In this document: one piece after another, positions 2,766 through 14,764 of the stretch | How the letters are laid out: the number at the start of each line of letters is the position of its first letter | Position numbering within the stretch: position 1 is the stretch's first letter | NCBI GenBank assembly: GCA_030537525.1 | Contig: JAUNVU010000019.1 | Coordinates: forward strand, 1 to 14,764 | Length of the DNA: 14,764 bases | Direction: 5' to 3' | Origin: Eubacteriales bacterium | Lineage (GTDB): Bacteria > Bacillota > Clostridia > Saccharofermentanales > DTU023 | The notes under the pieces: model-generated | Databases searched by the model: none | What the model saw: only the letters and a program-made list of their open reading frames with translations | What the model was told of the DNA's origin: nothing | Translations under genes and position numbers: made by a program

Positions 2766-2958
2766 TTATTACTGACTACTGTATTAGGCTGGTAATAAGC
2801 CCTGAAAGCAGCTAGAGCAGAGTATATTTGAACTTCGGAAAGCGTCTTCAAATTAATTGGAGAGTAAATTTACCTAAAACTATTCAAATATATTAAAATA
2901 ATCTCAAGCTCTGTGAAATCAATCAGCAAATTAAGCATTAGAGCTGAAGGAGGTTAGC

Positions 2959-4239
2959 ATGGGATTAATTAAGGCCATGACTACTGCTCTGGGAACTAGC
3001 CTCGCAGATCAGTATAAGGAATTTTTCTACTGCGACTCATTGGACAAGAATGTCCTGATGGCAAAAGGCGTACCGCGTAAGGGTGCCCGCTCGCAGAATC
3101 GAGGCTCCGACAATATTATTTCTAACGGCTCGGCAATAGCTGTAGCCGATGGCCAGTGCATGATGATAGTGCAGCAAGGTGAGATAGTCGAGTTCTCAGC
3201 AGAGCCAGGAGAATACGTCTGGGAGGCCTCCGCAGAGCCCTCGGTATTCACAGGCAAGCTCGGCGAGTCCATAGTCGAATCCTTCAAGGTCTTCGGTCGT
3301 CGTATTACCTTCGGTGGTGATACTGCCCGGGACCAGAGAATCTACTACTTCAATATCAAGGAGATCACGGATAATAAATTTGGCACGCCAAATCCCGTTG
3401 CCTTCCGTGTTGTTGACCGTCAAATCGGCCTCGACATTGATATCTCCGTGCGCTGTAACGGCAGCTATTCATACCATATTGTGGATCCGATACTCTTTTA
3501 TAAGAATGTCGCTGGCAATGTCTCTGAAGCTTATTATCGAGAAGATATTGACGCCCAGATGAAGGCCGAGTTGATCCAGCAATTGAGTCCGGCTTTTGCC
3601 AAGATTTCTCAATTGGAAATTCGTCCTAATCAGCTGATGGCGAAGGGGCCGGAGATTGCCCAAGCACTGCAAGAACAGCTCTCTGAGACCTGGTCTAATT
3701 TGCGTGGAATTGAGATTGTCAGCGTCGGCTTGAATTCGGTCAGTATTCCGAAAGAGGATGAAGAACTCATTAAGCAGGCTCAGCGTGCCGCTATCTTCCG
3801 AGATCCCAATATGGCAGCAGCAGGTATTACCGCAGCACAGGCCGATGCCATGCGTGCAGCCGCTGCTAATGAGGGCGGTGCAGGTGCCATGGGTGCCTTC
3901 GTCGGCCTCGGTATGGCTAATCAAGCGGGCGGGGCCAATGCTGGCGACCTCTTCCGCCAAGCTCAGCAGCAGCCACAGGGACAGCAGATGCCGCAAGGCC
4001 AGCAGCCTCCCCAGGCTCAGCAGGCTGGCGTGGTCTACGGTCAAACTGGCGGATCTGCAAGTTGGCGCTGTGTCTGTGGCGCCTCCAATAATGGCAAATT
4101 CTGCACGAATTGTGGCCGTCCAGCGCCGCAAGCTGAGAGTTATAAATGCGATAAGTGCGGCTATGCCCCACCGGCTGGCGAGCGCCCGAATTTCTGTCCC
4201 GAATGTGGTGACAAGATTGACGAAGCCGACAAGGTCTAG
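2959..4239 (+). CDS. SPFH/band-7 (stomatin-prohibitin-flotillin) domain protein with C-terminal tandem zinc ribbons; B. subtilis YdjI-like (COG4260 type)
   Basis: The N-terminus MGLIKAMTTALGTSLADQYKEFFYCDS is characteristic of the YdjI/COG4260 family. There is a central SPFH-like region. A Q/A/G-rich low-complexity linker follows (QQQPQGQQMPQGQQPPQAQQ). Two C-terminal zinc ribbons are present: WRCVCG...CTNCG and YKCDKCG...CPECG. There is a strong RBS, GAAGGAGG, 6 nt upstream of the ATG. Confidence 0.85.
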   Translation: MGLIKAMTTALGTSLADQYKEFFYCDSLDKNVLMAKGVPRKGARSQNRGSDNIISNGSAIAVADGQCMMIVQQGEIVEFSAEPGEYVWEASAEPSVFTGKLGESIVESFKVFGRRITFGGDTARDQRIYYFNIKEITDNKFGTPNPVAFRVVDRQIGLDIDISVRCNGSYSYHIVDPILFYKNVAGNVSEAYYREDIDAQMKAELIQQLSPAFAKISQLEIRPNQLMAKGPEIAQALQEQLSETWSNLRGIEIVSVGLNSVSIPKEDEELIKQAQRAAIFRDPNMAAAGITAAQADAMRAAAANEGGAGAMGAFVGLGMANQAGGANAGDLFRQAQQQPQGQQMPQGQQPPQAQQAGVVYGQTGGSASWRCVCGASNNGKFCTNCGRPAPQAESYKCDKCGYAPPAGERPNFCPECGDKIDEADKV

Positions 4240-4275
4240 AGCTCTAGGCCTCGTCTAGGGTATAGAGAGCTGGCC

Positions 4276-5430
4276 ATGAGAGAGATACGTGAGTATGAAT
4301 GCCCGCGCTGTGGCGGTCGTGTTGAGTATGACCCCAAGTCGGGTCTCCTAGTCTGCCCATACTGTGGGGCTGAGTTTGAGCCTGAGGCTTTTGCCGAAAA
4401 ACTGGCAAAAGCCCAGCCTGTTGATACTGAGTCTCCTGCTGCGGAGACGGTGAGTTATGCAAGGGTGCCAGGCGAACAGCTAGAGCGGTGGAATCCCAGT
4501 GAGGAGCCTGGGCTGACCTCATATATTTGTGAGTCCTGCGGCGGTGAGATTATTGCCGATGTCAATAAGGCGGCCTTGCGTTGTCCTTACTGTGACAATC
4601 CCGTCTTGGTGCCGCGAAAGTTAGAGGCCCAGTACAAGCCCAATTATGTGATTCCGTTTCGTTTTAGCAAGGAGCAGGCGATCGAGGCATTTCGGCAACA
4701 CGCCAGTGCGCATAAGCTCGTACCAGACATCTTCAGTGCGAAGTCGCATCTCGAAGAGGTGCAGGGAATCTACCTGCCCTATTGGCTGATTTCGTGTCGG
4801 GCGAAGGCCAACTATGCCTTCGAGGCGAGTACAACAGAGAGTGTCAGGTCTGGTGACAGAATTTATACGACAGAGCGAATTTATGATGTCAAACGGCAGG
4901 GCGCGCTAAACTTCGAACAGATTCCCGTAGAGGCCAGCACGAAGCATTCCAGGGCGCTATTAGAGTCTCTGGAACCTTATGACTTCAGTCAATTACAGCC
5001 CTTTAATGAGGGTTATTTGGCGGGTTTTCTCGCCGACAAGTACGATCTTGAGGCCGAGGCCAGTGAGCCGAGGGCGAAGCAGCGCATACAGAAGACGATG
5101 GAGACGGCGTTTAATAAAACACTCAGTGATTATGAACGTTTTAGTCTGAGGGATATGGAGCTGAATTTGGATCAGATGAAGTTTGAGTATGCCTTGCTGC
5201 CTGTCTGGATTCTCAATACGCGCTGGCAAAACGAGCTCTACCACTTCGCTATGAACGGGCAGACGGGCAAGCTAATCGGTGACCTACCTGAAGATCGCAG
5301 CAAGGTTAGAAAGGCACGCTTAAAATACGGCTTGATCTACGCCTTGCTCGCCTTGCTTCTAGGCTACTTCCTCTTGCCATATCTCGTCCGTTTATTCCTC
5401 GTAAATAATTTGCTGGGGTATCTATTATGA
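4276..5430 (+). CDS. Membrane protein with two N-terminal zinc ribbons and a C-terminal transmembrane segment; YdjG-like partner of the SPFH protein
   Basis: CPRCGG...CPYCG and CESCGG...CPYCDN form two CxxC-x(n)-CxxC ribbons. There is a hydrophobic C-terminus (LIYALLALLLGYFLLPYLVRLFLV). It sits between the SPFH gene and the TPM gene, as in B. subtilis ydjGHI (gene order recalled from memory). Its stop overlaps the next start (ATGA). Confidence 0.7.
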   Translation: MREIREYECPRCGGRVEYDPKSGLLVCPYCGAEFEPEAFAEKLAKAQPVDTESPAAETVSYARVPGEQLERWNPSEEPGLTSYICESCGGEIIADVNKAALRCPYCDNPVLVPRKLEAQYKPNYVIPFRFSKEQAIEAFRQHASAHKLVPDIFSAKSHLEEVQGIYLPYWLISCRAKANYAFEASTTESVRSGDRIYTTERIYDVKRQGALNFEQIPVEASTKHSRALLESLEPYDFSQLQPFNEGYLAGFLADKYDLEAEASEPRAKQRIQKTMETAFNKTLSDYERFSLRDMELNLDQMKFEYALLPVWILNTRWQNELYHFAMNGQTGKLIGDLPEDRSKVRKARLKYGLIYALLALLLGYFLLPYLVRLFLVNNLLGYLL

Positions 5431-6272
5431 AGCGTATATTGACGATTTTTATCATATTCTTGCTTCTCATGATCCCTGCTGTCTGCTTGGCAGAGCAGCA
5501 AATTAGTGATGAACATCTTGGCAGTAAGCGTGAATTGCCAAGGGTCCTAGATGATGTGGGTATTCTCACAGAGCATGAATTGCAGCAGCTGAACGAGCAG
5601 TTTGATGCTATTTCTGCAAAGTACCAATGTGATGTGGCAGTTTACGTGACGGGCTCTCTATTTGGCTATACCGCAGAGAGCTATGCTGACGACTTCTTCG
5701 ACCACTTCGGCTACGGCTGGGGTGAGGCAGACGACGGCATACTTCTTTTAATTTCCACCGAGGCTAGAGACTGGCATATGACGACGCATAAATTTGCCAC
5801 CTACGCACTCAGCGATGCGGCCTTGGCGGCGGTTTTTGCCACTATCAAGGAGCCGCTGCGGCAAGACGAGTATTATGAGGCATTTTCGCTATTTGGCGAT
5901 GAGGTCGCTCGCTACCTGAAGGCTGCTAGAGCGGGTAAGCCACTGGATCCGCAGGCCGAAGCCGCGAAGCGGATGGGCCATATCGGCGCCCTCCTGGCGA
6001 GCTTGTTATTCGGTTCCTATGGAGCTGTCGGCAAGGTCAACGCTCAGCGGCGGCGCTTAAAATCTATCTTCCTCGCCCATGATGCTAGGAATCATGCACG
6101 CCTTGATACGGCAGCCCTAATGGGCAGAGAAGATAGAATTGTCGATGTCAGGCGCAGAGTCACTGAAATTCCTCGGAATACTGGTTCTAAGGGTAGCGGC
6201 ATAAGCTCTGGATCGAGTACCCATATTAGTTCGTCAGGGCGCAGTCACGGCGGCAGAGGTGGGAAGTTCTAA
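5427..6272 (+). CDS. TPM-domain (UPF0603/TLP18.3-like) membrane protein; YdjH-like
   Basis: Signal or transmembrane segment MKRILTIFIIFLLLMIPAVCLA. TPM-domain motifs are present: LDDVGILTEHELQQLNEQ...DVAVYV...GWGEADDGILLLISTEARDWHMTT. A second transmembrane segment follows (IGALLASLLFGSYGAV). The Gly/Ser-rich C-terminal tail (GSKGSGISSGSSTHISSSGRSHGGRGG) is typical of TPM proteins. Confidence 0.85.
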   Translation: MKRILTIFIIFLLLMIPAVCLAEQQISDEHLGSKRELPRVLDDVGILTEHELQQLNEQFDAISAKYQCDVAVYVTGSLFGYTAESYADDFFDHFGYGWGEADDGILLLISTEARDWHMTTHKFATYALSDAALAAVFATIKEPLRQDEYYEAFSLFGDEVARYLKAARAGKPLDPQAEAAKRMGHIGALLASLLFGSYGAVGKVNAQRRRLKSIFLAHDARNHARLDTAALMGREDRIVDVRRRVTEIPRNTGSKGSGISSGSSTHISSSGRSHGGRGGKF

Positions 6273-8742: not shown

Positions 8743-9990
8743 CTAAGCACGCTCCTCACCGCGTTCGTGGATGACGAGCTTGCCGAAGTTGATGCGCTCC
8801 CTCGATTTTCCACGGACCCTGCCGATGGTGCAAGAACAAGGTCCGCTGAGCACCACAGAAAGATCATCTATGCACAAATTATTTCCTTCGAAGACCGAGG
8901 CGCCAGCCAAGTCTATGGTCACTTCCTTGGCCTCGCCCGAGCACTTCATGACGGCAGCCCCGTAACCTCTGTAGTCGATTCTGCCACCAGTTAGCTGGTC
9001 GACAGCAACCTTGCCGGCACCACTACTTTCAAGCTCGATATTATGGGCACTGCCGATACGGACAATGCCTGCCCCCTTGCAATTTAGCTTGAAATTATCA
9101 ACGTGTAAGAGATCGCAGGTGCAAGCCCCATTGATAACCGCCTCAGCCGCTGCGAAGTCGATAGCAGATTGCAGACTGGCCGTGCCATTGGTATCTAGCT
9201 TCAAGTTCTTCATCTTATTTTCAGGACAGTTGATCCAGAGAGTTGACTTCTTATAGGAGCTGGCAGAAAAAACGGTCTCGAAGATACCGCGTCGCTTGGG
9301 GAAATTGCTGAATTTAAAGATGAGAGTCTTGCCATCTTTCTCAAATTCCAGAGTGTCGGCTGCTTGGGCATCTCCGTGTATCCTCCAGCCAGTAGGCTCA
9401 TTGGGATTAGCCGTGATCTTGATCTTCAGAGGGCGAAACTGAGAGTCGATGATAATTGAGTCGAAATCTGCATCCTGGTAGCTATTGCTATTAGTCTGAG
9501 CCTCCGCTTCGCTCTCATAAGCAGCATAGTGGAGATTGCCAGGGGTGAATTCCGAACGTCTGAAAATACTGATTCTCTGGCCCTGGTTAACTATCATATT
9601 GCTTGCCAGATCAATGGTGGAACCATCTTGTAAGATGACCTCCGGCAGCTTGATACTCCTGGCAGGCGTCTCGGCATAGAGAAGCTTGTCGCCATAAGTC
9701 GCAATCCAGGACATGGACTGATATTTCTGAGGAGCCTCCTTGGGCCGTTGATTCTTCTCGTCTTTGACCTCCCTTGACTGCTCAGCGCCAAACAGCTCAT
9801 CCATCGACAAACCGAGGGTGCTGGCGATGCTTGGCAGCATTGAGAGATCTGGATAGCCAGCCCCCGTCTCCCACTTGCTGATCGCCTGCGCCGAAACTCC
9901 GAGCTTGTCGGCAAATTCTGCCTGCGTTAAATTCTTCGCCTTGCGGGCGTTGCTTATGGTCAAGCCAATGCCTCTGTAATCGTAATTCAT
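8743..9990 (-). CDS. XRE-family HTH transcriptional regulator fused to a Gly-rich beta-helical repeat domain (DUF4097/DUF2807 GIN-like); no transmembrane segment
   Basis: The preferred start is ATG 9990 (MNYDYRGIGLT...), with the RBS AGAAAGGA 7 nt upstream. The ORF track began at 10059 with no RBS. The N-terminus NLTQAEFADKLGVSAQAISKWETG is a canonical HTH_3. The C-terminal 150 aa show repeated motifs NGACTCDL, KGAGIVRIGS, SSGAGKVAVD, GYGAAVMKC, LAGASVFEGN, LSGPCSCTIG. These resemble the adhesin-like beta-helix of YvlB/LiaG-type proteins. Confidence 0.8.
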   Translation of the reverse strand: MNYDYRGIGLTISNARKAKNLTQAEFADKLGVSAQAISKWETGAGYPDLSMLPSIASTLGLSMDELFGAEQSREVKDEKNQRPKEAPQKYQSMSWIATYGDKLLYAETPARSIKLPEVILQDGSTIDLASNMIVNQGQRISIFRRSEFTPGNLHYAAYESEAEAQTNSNSYQDADFDSIIIDSQFRPLKIKITANPNEPTGWRIHGDAQAADTLEFEKDGKTLIFKFSNFPKRRGIFETVFSASSYKKSTLWINCPENKMKNLKLDTNGTASLQSAIDFAAAEAVINGACTCDLLHVDNFKLNCKGAGIVRIGSAHNIELESSGAGKVAVDQLTGGRIDYRGYGAAVMKCSGEAKEVTIDLAGASVFEGNNLCIDDLSVVLSGPCSCTIGRVRGKSRERINFGKLVIHERGEERA

Positions 9991-10071
9991 GTCAATTCCT
10001 TTCTGATCTTGCTGGCAAAAGCCGAGCCTAGCAAGGTTTTGCTTAATTAGAGCTTGCAAGGAGTATTAAAA

Positions 10072-10208: not shown

Positions 10209-10238
10209 TTGACAAGAGCTTTTCAAGAGTGCTAGAAT
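10209..10238 (+). promoter_or_regulatory. Sigma-A-type promoter for the tRNA-Ser pair
   Basis: -35 TTGACA (10209-10214), an 18-nt spacer, and an extended -10 TGcTAGAAT (10233-10238). The predicted transcription start site is ~10 nt before the first tRNA. Confidence 0.55.
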
Positions 10239-10256
10239 TCTCTAGCCGCAATGCCT

Positions 10257-10347
10257 GGAGAGATGGTCGAGTTGGCTGAAGGCACCGGTCTTGAAAACCG
10301 GCGAGGGTGCAAGCCCTCCGTGGGTTCGAATCCCACTCTCTCCGCCA
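10257..10347 (+). tRNA. tRNA-Ser (anticodon UGA), class II with long variable arm; CCA encoded
   Basis: The acceptor stem GGAGAGA/TCTCTCC is followed by G and CCA. Anticodon stem CCGGT/ACCGG with loop CTTGAAA. Variable arm GAGGGTGCAAGCCCTC. T-arm GTGGG-TTCGAAT-CCCAC. Confidence 0.9.
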
Positions 10348-10349
10348 GA

Positions 10350-10386
10350 GCTTCTGACTTCAGGCTTTGAGGGCCAAGCCAGAAGC
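10350..10386 (+). other. Inter-tRNA spacer hairpin (probable processing or structural element)
   Basis: GCTTCTG (10350-10356) pairs with CAGAAGC (10380-10386) around a 23-nt loop. It is followed by ATTTTT and then the second tRNA. Confidence 0.3.
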
Positions 10387-10392
10387 ATTTTT

Positions 10393-10483
10393 GGAGAAGT
10401 ACCCAAGAGGCTGAAGGGGACGGTTTGCTAAATCGTTAGTGGGGGCAACTCCAGCGAGGGTTCGAATCCCTCCTTCTCCGCCA
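10393..10483 (+). tRNA. tRNA-Ser (anticodon GCU), class II; CCA encoded
   Basis: Acceptor stem GGAGAAG/CTTCTCC + G + CCA. Anticodon stem ACGGT/ATCGT (one G-U pair) with loop TTGCTAA. T-arm GAGGG-TTCGAAT-CCCTC. There is a long variable arm. Confidence 0.9.
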
Positions 10484-10488
10484 GAAAA

Positions 10489-10517
10489 CCCTGTAACATT
10501 TTTGTTGCAGGGTTTTT
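10489..10517 (+). terminator. Rho-independent terminator of the tRNA operon
   Basis: CCCTGTAACA-tttt-TGTTGCAGGG forms a 10-bp stem with one G-U pair. It is followed by TTTTTgcTATTT. Confidence 0.8.
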
Positions 10518-10657
10518 GCTATTTAAGACTAAGCTAGTGTTTTAAGTATTTTTCCAGAGCTTAGATAGTTTCTGCTGCGAGCCCCTTATTATTTACCTAG
10601 CTAAACTACTCGTTATGGCTAGCTCCTCTCTTTTTTACTTTGCTAATTTTAAATTGA

Positions 10658-10675: not shown

Positions 10676-10749
10676 GCTTTGAATTCGCACTAGTTTTTTG
10701 CCAATACCGTTAGTCGGTTTTGCTGATAACAGCAAAGAGAGGAGGTCTT

Positions 10750-13700
10750 ATGAACAAGAAATTATATTGTGTAATCCTCGCCAGCATATTCTTATTGAGT
10801 ATCTTGCTCGCCATGGTACCGCTTGGCCCTGCCGTCAAGGCGGATACAGTCTACTTGTATCCAGGAGCAACGGGCTCAATTACGCGCATCGCGTATCGCT
10901 ATGACTGGACGTATCTGGGTGACGGCTTCGATGTCGTGCCCGTCCTAATTCAGGAGAATTTGCTTAATCAGCCTGAGCCATTGTATGAAGGCTTTGTCGA
11001 TGAACAATTATTTATCAATGAAATAGAAGAGATGGGCGATACCGTGGTTTTCGGAGAGCCCTCCAGCTCTGATAATGATTTATTTGCCGAAGAGGAGCAA
11101 GGCGATGATAATAGGTGGACGCAAACTCCTGATTATGTCAATCTCTTAATTCGCCACATCACGATTCAATTAGATGGCACGGAGATGCTGATGGAGGATG
11201 TCTGGCATGAGCTAGCTTACGGCCAGACTTATCTCACGGCTAATTTTGCTAGAGAGTATGAGGGTTTTTACTACTCAGAGCAGAATCAGGCGACTTTCAA
11301 TTCTAACGATGAGATGATCTTCGTCTATTACATTGCCTATCCCATCATCGATGATCTCGGCAGTTTAGAGGATGTTGAAGAGCCCGAGATTCCAAATGAC
11401 AATCTGACTCCGCCAATAAATATTGCACCACCGCCACCGGCACCTCCAGTGCCCCCGGTTTCAGCCCAGCAGCCGAAGCCGAATACACCGCCACCGCTGC
11501 CGCCGCCACCGCCAGGTCCATCTACTTCGGATGCCCCGCCTTCAATTGAAACACCAAGTGGTGGTGATGAGTATGACGATCCCGAGGGTCCGCGCCAGGG
11601 TTCAAGTAAGCGCCCGAAGAAGGATTCTGAAGATGCTGAGCTCAGAGTCAATCTTGAAAAGGAACATTCGGAGACACCGACCTATGACGACTCAGTTATT
11701 GATGATGAAGTTCAGACATCGGTCGTCTTGCACGCTGTGGACATCGATAGCATGAAGGAATTGGACCATGTTGAATTTACAACCAACCTCTTGCTCTGGA
11801 CCTATACGGACCTGGATGCACTCGTAACGGTGCCGCAGGAGTATCGTCTCCTAGATCCACCAGAAAATGATTTCCACTACTATTTAACTCCCAATGAAAC
11901 AAATGAAATTACACTGTACTACAGAGTCGAGCAGGGTCCAGTAATTGTCATTATCGCCGTCGACTGTGGTGATGGTGTTCTCCACATGCTGGGCAGCTAT
12001 GACATTCTAGATCTCGGCCCCTTAAAAGAGGTCTACACCCTCGGTGAACTCACCAATCATTATCCCTTGCCCTCAGGCTATGAGTACTCAGTAGATCGCA
12101 ATATCCCAGAATATGAGATTCCTGCGACTTCCGAGCTAGTCGAGCTTGTCTTGATAGCAGAAAGTGACTACTGTACGGAGCCTCAGGATTTCAGCTATTT
12201 GGTCAGACACTGGGCCATGGTCAATGGGCAACTGAAGTTCTTGGATTTCGAGATTCGTCCCGCCAAGCCAGGGGATGTTGTACCGCTGCAGTCCATTGCT
12301 AAAAATTTCTTGCCGCTCTACTCTCTGGCAGGTATTCCACCGAATAGGGCAGCCTACATGGTCTCATTTACTAATAATGTCATAGATCTCTACTACCGTC
12401 CTTGTTATTACATAGTCTCGCCGCCAGACCAATGCGAGAACAATGGTTGCATGCTTGGACCGCCAATAGTCAAAATTGAGATCAAGTGCCCAGGATTCTG
12501 GTGCTGGCAAGAAACATTGGAGATCTTAGTTCCACCCACAGAGGTCAAGCCGCCATATATTCCGAAGCCAAGCAAGCCTGGCAAACCTGGCAAACCTGGT
12601 AAGTCGGAGAAGATTCAGTGGAATGCCTCTTATGATGTCATCGTCTACGGCTTAGATGCCGCAGGTGCAGTAGCTGCCATTACAGCTGCTGAAGAGGGGG
12701 CAGCTGTCCTAGTCGTCGATAGAAATGGTCCGAATGAGACAGGTGGCTACACCAAGCACTGCCCACAGCAATTGCTCTACAGCGAAGATGAAGCTGGTGC
12801 CACGAAGTTCTTTAAGAGTCTTCGCGGCGACTACGACCACCTCTCAGACGAGCATATCAAGGCTTTGGCCACGGGTTCTTTGGCTGTTCCACAATGGCTC
12901 AAGGATCACGGTGCCAGCCAGCTCTATGACCTGGGTTACGTCCAGTATGAGGAGCTGCCAGGTGGTGAAAAGATGAAGATGCTGACGCTGCATGAGAAGG
13001 CGAAAAATGATCGTGCCTTCTACAATCTCCTCTTGCAGAATCTCTTAGAGATCAAGAATAAGCAGGGTAAGTATAAGCAGATTAAGGGCAGCATCAAGTA
13101 CTCGTATAACTCTAATCTCATCAACTTGATCCAGGATCCTAAGAGCAAGGCTGTTTTAGGTATTGAGATCAAGCAGAAGGGTAAGAATTACAAGCTCGAG
13201 GCCAAGGGTGGGGTCATCCTCGCCGCAGGCGGTTTCGAAGCCAATGAAGAGATGATTGAAAACTTCTTGCAGCTGCCAGAAGCACTTTCTCGCTATGGTC
13301 ATGATGCCAGCGGGGATGCGATTCGCGCTAGCATGAAGATTGGTGCCGACCTCTGGCACATGGGCAATGTCGCAGGTTATGACTTGCACTTCAAGCCGAC
13401 TTTTGGTCCCGACAAGATCGACAAGCGCCGTAATATTCAGGGCTATTTCGAAGATCAGCTGGGTGATCGCAGTTGCTTCGTAGTTGGTCCTAATGGCCGC
13501 CGCTTCACCGATGAGTCTGCTGAGTTGAGACTGGGTCACTGGGATCCAGCTGGTAATTGGGTGGCACAGCAAATTCCGCCACGCGCCTGGGTCATTTTCG
13601 ACGAGCCAGGACTGACGCAAGCACCGCTCTACCCAGGCTGGTCTAATGACAACCAAGCTGAAGTCAAGAAGGGTTGGCTGCTCAAGGCCGACAGCATTAA

Positions 13701-14067
13701 GGAGCTGGCTGCCAAACTCGGTGTCGATCCTGACAATCTCGAGGATCAGTTCCTGGATTATCAGGACTACTGCAAAGCGGGCTACGACTCTCAGCTGCAT
13801 CGCCCCGACACCTATCTCAAGCAGTTGACGACTGAAGGACCATACTACGCCCTAGCAGTTTTCCCGACCATTCACCACAGCTTGGGTGGTCCGAGGAAGA
13901 ATGCGGCAGGCCAGGTCCTAGACATCGACGGCAAGATCATTCCAGGTCTCTACAGCGCGGGTAATATCGGCTCCTTCTTTGCCGATATCTATCCTGAGGG
14001 TGGTGATCTGAGTGAGTGCATCATAGTCGGTAGAATTGCAGGAACGAACGCCGCAAAGAAGAAATAA
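10750..14067 (+). CDS. Large secreted multidomain protein (1105 aa). Signal peptide; novel N-terminal domain; Pro-rich linker; Cys-rich middle domain; PGK-repeat linker; C-terminal FAD-dependent oxidoreductase domain (FAD_binding_2; fumarate reductase/urocanate reductase/KstD superfamily)
   Basis: The start is ATG 10750, with GAGAGGAGG ending 4 nt upstream. The ORF track began at TTG 10720 with no RBS. Signal peptide: MNKKLYCVILASIFLLSILLAMVPLGPAVKA|DT. Proline-rich run: PPPPAPPVPPVSAQQPKPNTPPPLPPPPPGPS. KPGKPGKPGK linker. C-terminal domain: DVIVYGLDAAGAVAAITAAEEGAAVLVVDR (Rossmann beta-alpha-beta), VILAAGGFEAN, HHSLGG, and IPGLYSAGNIGSFFADIYPEGGDLSECIIVGRIAG (the family's C-terminal FAD-contact motif). 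No C-terminal sorting signal is present. Confidence 0.85.
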   Translation: MNKKLYCVILASIFLLSILLAMVPLGPAVKADTVYLYPGATGSITRIAYRYDWTYLGDGFDVVPVLIQENLLNQPEPLYEGFVDEQLFINEIEEMGDTVVFGEPSSSDNDLFAEEEQGDDNRWTQTPDYVNLLIRHITIQLDGTEMLMEDVWHELAYGQTYLTANFAREYEGFYYSEQNQATFNSNDEMIFVYYIAYPIIDDLGSLEDVEEPEIPNDNLTPPINIAPPPPAPPVPPVSAQQPKPNTPPPLPPPPPGPSTSDAPPSIETPSGGDEYDDPEGPRQGSSKRPKKDSEDAELRVNLEKEHSETPTYDDSVIDDEVQTSVVLHAVDIDSMKELDHVEFTTNLLLWTYTDLDALVTVPQEYRLLDPPENDFHYYLTPNETNEITLYYRVEQGPVIVIIAVDCGDGVLHMLGSYDILDLGPLKEVYTLGELTNHYPLPSGYEYSVDRNIPEYEIPATSELVELVLIAESDYCTEPQDFSYLVRHWAMVNGQLKFLDFEIRPAKPGDVVPLQSIAKNFLPLYSLAGIPPNRAAYMVSFTNNVIDLYYRPCYYIVSPPDQCENNGCMLGPPIVKIEIKCPGFWCWQETLEILVPPTEVKPPYIPKPSKPGKPGKPGKSEKIQWNASYDVIVYGLDAAGAVAAITAAEEGAAVLVVDRNGPNETGGYTKHCPQQLLYSEDEAGATKFFKSLRGDYDHLSDEHIKALATGSLAVPQWLKDHGASQLYDLGYVQYEELPGGEKMKMLTLHEKAKNDRAFYNLLLQNLLEIKNKQGKYKQIKGSIKYSYNSNLINLIQDPKSKAVLGIEIKQKGKNYKLEAKGGVILAAGGFEANEEMIENFLQLPEALSRYGHDASGDAIRASMKIGADLWHMGNVAGYDLHFKPTFGPDKIDKRRNIQGYFEDQLGDRSCFVVGPNGRRFTDESAELRLGHWDPAGNWVAQQIPPRAWVIFDEPGLTQAPLYPGWSNDNQAEVKKGWLLKADSIKELAAKLGVDPDNLEDQFLDYQDYCKAGYDSQLHRPDTYLKQLTTEGPYYALAVFPTIHHSLGGPRKNAAGQVLDIDGKIIPGLYSAGNIGSFFADIYPEGGDLSECIIVGRIAGTNAAKKK
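12573..12599 (+). repeat. Tandem 9-bp repeat x3 inside the coding region (encodes KPGKPGKPG)
   Basis: caagcctgg / caaacctgg / caaacctgg. It is a potential slipped-strand length-variable linker. Confidence 0.5.
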
Positions 14068-14073
14068 ATTACT

Positions 14074-14104
14074 GGGGTCAGGTAGGTCAGGCCTGGCCCC
14101 TTTT
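14074..14104 (+). terminator. Rho-independent terminator after the large secreted-protein gene
   Basis: GGGGTCAGG-taggtcagg-CCTGGCCCC forms a 9-bp stem with one G-U pair. It is followed by TTTTccTTaaTTT and starts 7 nt after the TAA stop. Confidence 0.75.
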
Positions 14105-14149
14105 CCTTAATTTGGCAACGCAATCAAGGGAAGAAGGGAGGTTTCGCGT

Positions 14150-14764
14150 ATGCTCGGAAGATTTAATTGTAAACGCTTCTTGCTGTTCTTACTCAGTCTA
14201 CTTTTGACACTGTCCGCCGTGCTCTTACCACAAGATAGTGAGGTTTTTGCCAGCTATTACATCAATTATGGTGAATATGGTGAAATCGACTTTGGTGATG
14301 GCAATACCTATTATTGGACTTACCAAGGTGAAGGACCTGGAGTCGGTACATTTACGGTCGACCCAGCCAGTAATGGTCTAGCCCATAATGAGCCACTCTA
14401 CAGCGGTTCTCTGAGCTTAGATACGGCGCGTGAACTCTTTTCGCAAGTGGATATTTACGATGTTGTTTTCGCTGGTGAAGAGCAGGTAGAACCTGAACCG
14501 ACTGAAGCACAAGTAGAAAATGTCATTGTGGTTTTCCACCACGTCTACTTAGATAGTAATGGTGTCTGGCAGTATGCAGCCAATGACACCTACTTTGAAA
14601 TGCTGAAGGATGAATACAGCAACCTAGGTCTCTATTATCTCAAAATTGAAGGCTTCAAGCCCGCAATTATAGATATTTACAGCATTCAATTTACGCCCAC
14701 CGACGGTGAGCAAGACAGCTATGGTAATTACCACTTCAATCTGGAATACGAGAAATTACCAGAG
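14150..14764 (+). CDS. Secreted protein, 3'-truncated at the window end. It is a paralog of the N-terminal domain of the upstream 1105-aa protein. It was not in the supplied ORF track because there is no stop codon in the window.
   Basis: RBS AAGGGAGG lies 7 nt upstream of ATG 14150. Signal peptide: MLGRFNCKRFLLFLLSLLLTLSAVLLPQDSEVFA. The frame is open for 205 codons to the window edge. It shares the motifs WTYxGxG (YYWTYQGEGPG versus YDWTYLGDGF) and EPLYxG (NEPLYSGS versus PEPLYEGF). It also shares DVVFAGEE versus DTVVFGEPS, in collinear order with the big protein. Confidence 0.7.
   Translation, partial: MLGRFNCKRFLLFLLSLLLTLSAVLLPQDSEVFASYYINYGEYGEIDFGDGNTYYWTYQGEGPGVGTFTVDPASNGLAHNEPLYSGSLSLDTARELFSQVDIYDVVFAGEEQVEPEPTEAQVENVIVVFHHVYLDSNGVWQYAANDTYFEMLKDEYSNLGLYYLKIEGFKPAIIDIYSIQFTPTDGEQDSYGNYHFNLEYEKLPE

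Follow-up and report, generated by a model that had tools for sequence, protein, structure and literature searches.

A secreted, flavin reductase-like protein of an uncultured gut-type Firmicute with a substituted second glycine in its dinucleotide-binding loop and no FMN_bind domain

Extracellular reductases flavinylated by ApbE are built to a common plan, in which an export signal is combined with a C-terminal FMN_bind domain bearing the flavinylation motif, and an electron relay through the flavin that ApbE attaches to FMN_bind is established for the Listeria-type enzymes. Light et al. are said to have reported FrdA-type extracellular flavinylated reductases of Listeria in 2019. The closest solved structures, by sequence, to the protein described below are the Shewanella flavocytochrome c3 (Fcc3) fumarate reductase (1qo8, 1qjd) and UrdA (6t85), and in the latter the salt bridge to the substrate carboxylate is made by Arg560 (residue roles from PMC7921117). 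Among gut flavin reductases the two arginines are kept in only one of four clades, the other clades having at the corresponding position a conserved Tyr (Trp in CrdD) that is essential for activity, as found for the Tyr of CirA and CirC; no deviation from the GxGxxG loop was reported in that survey (Little et al., bioRxiv 10.1101/2022.12.26.521950). The gene described here lies at 10750..14067 on the forward strand of the window, by which is meant a whole contig of 14,764 bp from the metagenome-assembled genome (MAG) of an uncultured gut-type Firmicute (Eubacteriales). It encodes, according to the open reading frame (ORF) list and translation, a secreted multidomain protein of 1105 amino acids (aa), MDO5738447.1, annotated by NCBI as 'FAD-binding protein', in one uninterrupted frame from an ATG at 10750 to a stop codon at 14065-14067. 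From its N-terminus the protein comprises a Sec export signal, an orphan module, a spacer rich in Pro and acidic residues, three repeats of probable Mub/MucBP type, a five-Cys connector and a reductase-family head, in which the second Gly of GxGxxG is replaced by Asp and after which no FMN_bind domain follows. A preliminary description of this DNA had already called it a secreted, multidomain protein of that length, in agreement with the Sec-type N-terminus read from the sequence and the single intact ORF.

The head, residues 626-1105 (12625..14064, +), was placed in the FAD_binding_2 (flavin reductase) family by Pfam, NCBIfam and PDB matches and by the clade analysis. Pfam FAD_binding_2 (PF00890), named as the C-terminal domain in the preliminary description, matched residues 629-1085 with an E-value of 1.8e-29 (103.6 bits, cutoff 20.4) over positions 1-411 of the 414 in the profile, and was the only Pfam match in the protein. 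The best PDB sequence matches were 1qo8 (E 2.9e-29) and UrdA 6t85 (E 2.5e-28). The best NCBIfam model was flavo_cyto_c (TIGR01813), at 148.1 bits against a cutoff of 285.45, and TcuA and KstD were also among the top models, all scores being far below their cutoffs (148/285, 135/369 and 134/789 bits); two KstD equivalogs reached 134 of 789 and 115 of 788 bits. A word-index search with the whole protein returned only the query, the likely reason being that the Pro-rich linker swamped the candidate list, and a search with the head alone found 355 relatives. The comparisons below rest on an outgroup alignment of 56 proteins and on 80 homologues from GTDB genomes at 30-42% identity, 77 of which are informative for the GxGxxG loop.

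The dinucleotide-binding loop of the head is degenerate, reading GLDAAG at residues 634-639 (12649..12666, +; DNA GGCTTAGATGCCGCAGGT), with Asp636 in place of the second Gly. That Gly is 100% conserved elsewhere, being present in 56/56 outgroup proteins and 77/77 informative GTDB homologues (G-x-G-x-[AS]-G), so the loop, which had been singled out as abnormal from the outset, is truly exceptional among homologues of the head. The window protein belongs to a clade of seven sequences, all from uncultured bacteria, that was monophyletic in 200/200 neighbour-joining bootstraps; its closest relatives are 47-63% identical to it in the head, and D, T or N stands at the second-Gly position in all clade members whose sequence extends over the loop. 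The loop is GLTPSG in P0007, GLDAGG in P0008, GIDASA in P0010, GFDLAG in P0011 and GINASG in the second gene of locus L085; P0009 as called does not cover it, and the upstream reading frame in locus L086 encodes GLDAGG. A sequencing error at Asp636 was considered and dropped, because the paralog in the same MAG and relatives from other samples share the change. All three replacements, D, T and N, belong to the classical N-cap residues of helices, and their presence would fit a helix terminus that is no longer capped by a pyrophosphate. Of the positions of GxGxxG the second Gly is the least mutable, because it lies closest to the pyrophosphate and contacts it; it is usually intolerant to change, although engineered substitutions there can retain activity and shift preference toward mononucleotides (PMC12822633).

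The paralog in the same MAG, P0007 (MDO5738100.1), lies on another contig, of 83,171 bp, and was assigned to the MAG by its adjacent accession range. It is 63% identical to the window protein in the head and 32% identical (E 9e-37) over the second and third of the middle repeats and the five-Cys connector; its N-terminus is cut by the contig end. Locus L085 carries two clade members in tandem, at 533-2734 (733 aa) and 2769-5867 (1032 aa), both of them intact. The second L085 copy, the one with the GINASG loop, has a lipobox-like signal (LMGC) and reads RF where the hinge HH would be expected. In both copies the first Gly of the GGF motif, elsewhere invariant, is replaced by Glu. The clade is rare: none of the 185,579 GTDB species genomes held a representative, a scan of GTDB with the clade profile recovered only canonical relatives at no more than 42% identity, and a pattern scan of JGI metagenomes for the middle domain plus head found nothing.

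The second distinguishing feature of the clade is the absence of FMN_bind. In the sister group (P0012-P0021) Pfam finds FMN_bind in 10/10 proteins, and in the three that were read it is C-terminal with an S-G-A-T motif and accompanied by lipoprotein or Tat signals. No member of the clade has the domain, so by parsimony this electron-entry domain was lost at the base of the clade. In the window protein itself there was no Pfam match to FMN_bind (PF04205) at E<=1, neither an [ST]GA[ST] nor a CxxCH motif was present, and the protein stops directly after the FAD domain. The clade sits on a long stem, with tips 0.71-0.85 from the shared node, against 0.37-0.47 for P0012-15, or about twice as far. 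The window protein has in common with the Listeria FrdA-type enzymes and the sister group the FAD_binding_2 family (33-43% identity over the whole head), an extracytoplasmic signal peptide and an Arg-less C-terminal active-site motif of the YxGxGN type. It differs from them in having no FMN_bind or [ST]GA[ST] motif, Asp as the second Gly, AGN for AGE, HHSLGG for NTQGG, and some 600 additional N-terminal stalk residues. By sequence comparison it is a descendant of the Gram-positive extracellular flavin reductases in which two hallmarks of these enzymes, FMN_bind with its flavinylation site and the canonical P-loop, are missing.

Other active-site motifs deviate as well. The motif YPEGGD (residues 1081-1086; 13990..14007, +) has Tyr1081 and Pro1082 where Fcc3 and UrdA have N-R-L-G-G-N, and HMMER alignments place Pro1082 opposite the carboxylate-binding Arg (Fcc3 Arg545, UrdA Arg560). 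The proton-donor Arg (Arg402/Arg411) aligns with Trp931, in an alignment where a 5-residue gap adjoins and the invariant Arg927 lies 4 residues upstream. The preliminary description rightly noted IYPEGGD and the absence of the carboxylate Arg and took the latter to be atypical. It is not, because all 80 GTDB homologues have an Arg-less Y-[QN]-G-x-x-N at this site, with Y-x-G-x-G-N in 77 of 77, and Arg-less reductase clades have been published; for the subfamily of the window protein the missing Arg is ordinary. The associated suggestion that fumarate is an unlikely substrate holds, given the TIGR01813 score and the Pro at the Arg position. By the published descriptions, the protein resembles the Arg-less gut cinnamate reductases CirA, CirC and CrdD as a secreted FAD_binding_2 protein without the two Arg, and is unlike them in that, within its clade, the Tyr position itself varies (Y/L/Y/F/V/F/F at 1081).

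The hinge motif HHSLGG (residues 1042-1047; 13873..13890, +) aligns with His520/521 of UrdA (HHTMGG), and by HMMER alignment the hinge His (His504 in Fcc3, His520 in UrdA) is present. The outgroup has NTQGG here, as do 80/80 GTDB homologues, and most clade members have HH(S/T)LGG, the variants at 1042-43 being HH, QT and RF. The head carries His at both the Fcc3 His365-like and the His504-like positions, the pair being His880 and His1042/1043. A further family motif, [AS]GE in 80/80 GTDB homologues, is replaced by AGN (13957..13965, +), with N, L, V or T at the Glu position across the clade, and GGN(T/S) has become GG(Y/F/V/H). The changes that recur within the clade are D636, N1072, H1043 and D1086. 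Compared with Fcc3 and UrdA, the two-domain FAD/clamp organisation, the HH(T/S)xGG hinge histidines and the His365-like residue are shared, and the differences are Pro for Arg545/Arg560, Trp aligned with Arg402/Arg411, the lack of a haem or FMN domain and the degenerate P-loop. The head also has a Lys-rich insertion, KQGKYKQIKGSIK, at residues 770-782 (~13058-13096), which occurs in P0007, P0008 and P0009 as well, and does not occur in P0010 or P0011.

The head is preceded by a stalk, the middle of which appears to consist of three beta-grasp-like units of about 75 aa (11710..12402, +): R1, residues 321-393; R2, 394-475; and R3, 479-551. These are followed by a Cys-rich connector, residues 552-586 (12403..12507, +), and, by composition, a Pro/Lys-rich linker, residues 587-625 (12508..12624, +). 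The connector had been taken for a cluster of six Cys, whereas the string quoted holds five (552, 562, 567, 580 and 585, in the pattern C-x9-C-x4-C-x12-C-x4-C), all of which are kept, at nearly identical spacing, in paralog P0007. An AlphaFold2 model of the middle region, built on a two-sequence alignment, has a mean predicted local distance difference test (pLDDT) score of 45.6, and in this low-confidence model R2 and R3 show a beta-beta-alpha-beta-beta pattern. Foldseek searches with the model gave the Mub-repeat surface protein YwfG as top match (E 2.2e-5, probability 0.99), then Ruminococcus gnavus IbpA (3.9e-4), Mub-RV (8e-3) and MUB (0.07), and two fold searches agreed on Mub/MucBP-type beta-grasp repeats of Gram-positive surface proteins. 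Pfam MucBP gave no match at E<=10 to any of the units or to the relatives, and hhalign found no significant similarity among the putative repeats, the best being R1-R2 at 22.8% probability. With moderate confidence, the middle region may be regarded as three highly divergent Mub/MucBP-type beta-grasp repeats. It was first described as a novel domain of some 300 aa; Pfam finds no match in it, and in place of one new domain there appear to be three beta-rich units, probably of Mub/MucBP type, and a Cys connector. The comparators are Lactococcus YwfG (7yl4), R. gnavus IbpA (7kpj), Lactobacillus Mub-RV (4mt5) and MUB (3i57), to which the stalk, in a model of low confidence, is similar in structure and not in sequence profile; the window protein differs from them in having no Pfam MucBP match and no LPXTG anchor and in the position of the putative repeats N-terminal to a head. 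A precedent for an enzyme carried together with MucBP domains is Ruminococcus bromii Amy12 (9qfa/7lst). The preliminary description had also allowed for a known adhesin module joined to a canonical reductase; the fold searches do point to an adhesin part, but Pfam finds nothing there and the reductase is non-canonical.

The N-terminal part begins with a Sec-type signal peptide, residues 1-31 (10750..10842, +), read from the sequence as a KK n-region, a 19-residue hydrophobic core and a V-K-A site, with likely cleavage at AVKA|DT. It is the sole strongly hydrophobic segment of the protein. A lipoprotein signal was considered for the window protein and dropped, there being no lipobox. Next comes module A, residues 32-104 (10843..11061, +), an orphan alpha/beta module with WTYxGxG and EPLYxG motifs that is common to the adjacent downstream ORF, and after an acidic linker module B, residues 129-197 (11134..11340, +), a beta-rich unit of uncertain fold that AlphaFold predicts as all-beta with pLDDT < 50. 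The remainder, residues 198-320 (11341..11709, +), is by composition a disordered Pro/Asp/Glu-rich spacer with 14 Asp, 13 Glu and 31 Pro in 123 residues, and is the long Pro-rich spacer noticed earlier. The stretch had been presented as one unassigned domain of about 200 aa; Pfam and NCBIfam indeed have no match to residues 1-625, to the downstream ORF or to the corresponding regions of the relatives, and the stretch divides into the two modules.

The downstream ORF, MDO5738448.1 (14150..14764, +), is partial, the contig ending at its codon 205, and has a signal peptide (1-34), a paralog of module A (35-~115) and a beta-rich unit (119-205). The two window proteins thus have a common layout of signal peptide, module A, acidic linker and beta-rich unit. 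BLASTP aligned them with 14/33 identities (E 0.002), and in Smith-Waterman comparisons of the downstream ORF against 2000 shuffles module A gave z = 5.5 (p ≈ 5e-4) and module B z = -0.7. The similarity of these neighbouring secreted proteins, proposed from the start, is therefore real for the ~70-aa module A and limited to it. Module A had no further homologue among 1.84 billion representative proteins and was seen twice only, both times on this contig; a pattern scan of GTDB genomes for it found nothing, its profile hidden Markov model matched none of the ORFs of the fetched relative loci or the N-termini of L001 and L086, and a Smith-Waterman comparison with L086 gave only z = 2.4, despite a common WTY motif. 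A homologue search with the downstream ORF matched the ORF itself alone. An exhaustive HMMER search with the two-sequence N-terminal profile recovered both window proteins and four VCBS/cadherin-repeat proteins (P0003-P0006), the latter at profile positions 110-154 only, through a repeat-summed DGxWxY-like motif. The B units carry a DG/NG-x-W-x-Y-like motif, at 11150-11260 and at 14504-14600 of the window (downstream ORF residues ~125-150), and the VCBS/cadherin-like matches are probably motif-level convergence and not homology. Further paralogs of the N-terminal domain, for which the preliminary description suggested a search, were accordingly absent from the profile search, which found module A in the two window proteins only. 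The idea that a family of secreted proteins built around a new domain had recruited a reductase must also be turned round: what the relatives share is the head, module A is an orphan, and it is the reductase lineage that seems to have acquired variable stalks and lost its wiring.

These features can be accounted for by the following history. The head descends from extracytoplasmic reductases with a C-terminal FMN_bind domain, in which a flavin attached by ApbE relays electrons from the membrane to FAD; such a relay is probable for the sister group, by analogy with the Listeria-type enzymes. On the way to the window protein, FMN_bind was lost, the second Gly was exchanged for Asp (Thr or Asn in relatives) and [AS]GE for AGN, and the rate of substitution roughly doubled. 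A role as a respiratory reductase wired to the membrane is unlikely, because the protein lacks an electron-entry domain as well as flavinylation and haem motifs and has no partner gene that is conserved: the 14.8-kb window contains no redox partner gene, with ApbE, PplA, EetAB and Ndh2 genes all absent from it, and none of the neighbouring genes is conserved across L001, L004, L085 and L086. The head would then no longer be connected to an electron-transfer chain, its binding of FAD may be lost or altered, and the former substrate cleft, which keeps His880 and His1042/1043, may be used for recognition rather than turnover. Our tentative preference, held with somewhat less than even confidence, is for a non-redox, ligand-binding head derived from an enzyme and displayed at the cell surface on an adhesin-like, Mub-like stalk. 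The 'redox system' of the preliminary description is accordingly doubtful, as both the electron-entry domain and canonical FAD-binding features have been lost. The evidence base is seven sequences, all metagenomic and three of them interrupted, with low-confidence models for the middle region and module B.

Several observations weigh against a binding head, and most of them speak for an alternative that is entirely possible, if still on the doubtful side, namely that the head still works outside the cell as a flavoenzyme, be it a reductase or a dehydrogenase, whose non-canonical site could hold FAD in a shifted pose or, the pocket for AMP and the second phosphate having been altered, a mononucleotide (FMN). 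Soluble flavin shuttles or an unlinked partner would supply the electrons, and the Mub-like stalk would be a surface tether, as in Amy12. All clade members keep the first Gly of the loop, the acidic residue that closes beta-2 (D/E657), GG664-665, the GG of the hinge and G1074, and all but the two L085 copies keep the GGF motif; also retained are WHM869-871, R918, E922, R927 and D951, none of which varies in the family at large. This surviving signature of an FAD site argues for a site that binds a nucleotide and may still be catalytic. The four recurring changes are consistent within the clade and not random, and the His365-like and His504-like residues suggest a tuned substrate pocket. Variation lining the active site among paralogs is also typical, by analogy, of working reductase families that are diversifying, and many family members without FMN_bind are presumably active. 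As noted above, engineered changes of the second Gly can preserve activity and shift preference to mononucleotides (PMC12822633). Duplications occurred in two genomes (P0001 and P0007 in the one MAG, and the tandem at L085), as is usual where a set of reductases is expanding (Little et al., bioRxiv 10.1101/2022.12.26.521950). The surface stalk, too, is a putative one, as the Mub-repeat assignment comes from a model of low mean pLDDT and lacks sequence-level support, and neither an LPXTG motif (LP.T[GASN]) nor a C-terminal hydrophobic segment is present in the window protein to anchor it. Against an active enzyme stand the invariance of the second Gly in every other homologue examined, mutation of which is usually inactivating (PMC12822633), the lack of FMN_bind, flavinylation and haem motifs, the lack of a conserved partner gene, the variation at the essential Tyr position, and the interruption of three of the seven loci upstream of the head.

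Those interruptions raise the question of decay. At L001 (6967-10409) a TAA nonsense codon, at a Tyr position in L086, and a frameshift are found identically in three independent samples; L086 (4906-8339), its ortholog, carries a single frameshift, which falls in the linker preceding the head; and L004 (9491-12157) has an in-frame TAG. Selenocysteine insertion or other recoding at these in-frame stops was considered and dropped, as TAA and TAG serve as normal stops nearby. Together with the long branches, these lesions would agree with the clade being a decaying remnant left after the loss of FMN_bind, the window copy being an ORF that happens to be intact and has no selected function. This is improbable, however, since the window ORF is open over 1105 codons and both L085 copies are intact, the head regions of ~480 aa are free of internal stops throughout the clade and remain 47-63% identical with ~100 invariant columns, the clade-specific changes are consistent, paralogs have been retained, and the L086 frameshift rests on a single Logan contig and could be an assembly error. 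Least probable by far is that the protein was misread and is in truth a secreted KstD-type dehydrogenase or a canonical reductase of fumarate or urocanate. Fcc3 and UrdA are indeed the best PDB matches, and flavo_cyto_c, TcuA and KstD are among the top NCBIfam models, but none of the NCBIfam scores comes near its cutoff, Pro stands at the Arg560 position, Trp is aligned with Arg411, and the P-loop is non-canonical.

A more speculative proposal, and on balance an unlikely one, would see in the clade a Rossmann-type flavoenzyme head repurposed outside the cell, either as a non-redox, ligand-binding pseudo-reductase on an adhesin stalk or through a switch from FAD to a mononucleotide flavin; exchange of the Gly that contacts the pyrophosphate for a helix-capping residue and loss of the flavinylated domain would have led to the one or the other. 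Module A could then be a new module that docks or anchors both of the neighbouring proteins at the cell surface.

The big gene is preceded by a ribosome-binding site, AGAGGAGG, at 10738-10745, 5 nt upstream of its ATG. Between it and the downstream ORF lies a terminator-like hairpin (14074..14100, +) of 10 bp, 7 of them GC, followed by TTTTCC; its folding energy is -19.8 kcal/mol, with a z of only -1.6 against shuffled sequences. Upstream are two tandem tRNA-Ser genes with anticodons UGA (10257-10347) and GCU (10393-10483), in a region at 10209-10520. They are preceded by a promoter-like site close to consensus (TTGACA-18-TAGAAT, a TG lying upstream) and followed, as read by eye, by a stem-loop and T-run at ~10487-10520. 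The big gene starts 267 bp downstream of the tRNA genes, and the local GC content is slightly lower, at 0.445-0.45, against 0.46-0.56 in windows further upstream.

The other genes of the window, which have no evident link to redox chemistry, specify a ZnuABC-like transporter, an SPFH protein, a zinc-ribbon membrane protein, a TPM-domain protein, a heavy-metal P-type ATPase and an HTH/DUF2807 protein. The transporter includes an ABC-3 (ZnuB-like) permease of 476 aa with a fused C-terminal DUF1980_C domain (1335-2765), upstream of which are a ZnuA fragment and an ABC ATPase. Three co-directional genes at 2959-6272 encode the SPFH/Band_7_1 protein, with a Gln/Pro-rich tail and Cys-x2-Cys pairs at its C-terminus, the zinc-ribbon protein, with an N-terminal ribbon and a hydrophobic C-terminus, and the TPM-domain protein, with a Gly/Ser-rich tail; this trio may be a conserved membrane-associated cluster. 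The gene at 8743-10059 on the reverse strand, divergent from the tRNA and big-gene side, encodes a 438-aa protein in which a DNA-binding domain of the HTH_3 (XRE) type is fused to DUF2807, an 'adhesin head GIN' domain.

It is becoming apparent that much of the anaerobic respiration of gut bacteria on dietary and host metabolites runs through secreted flavin reductases, and genome surveys count these by domain and signal peptide. The clade of the window protein would be counted in this way although its members have neither an electron-entry domain nor the FAD-binding residue that is otherwise the most conserved, and so it marks a limit of domain-based annotation. That a reductase-like head which is secreted should have lost the 'unmutable' glycine, and have done so consistently across a clade, is truly odd. 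If the head only binds, a respiratory enzyme would have given rise to a pseudoenzyme outside the cell; if it works, it would be a natural exception to the irreplaceable second Gly, with a bearing on the re-engineering of cofactor specificity.

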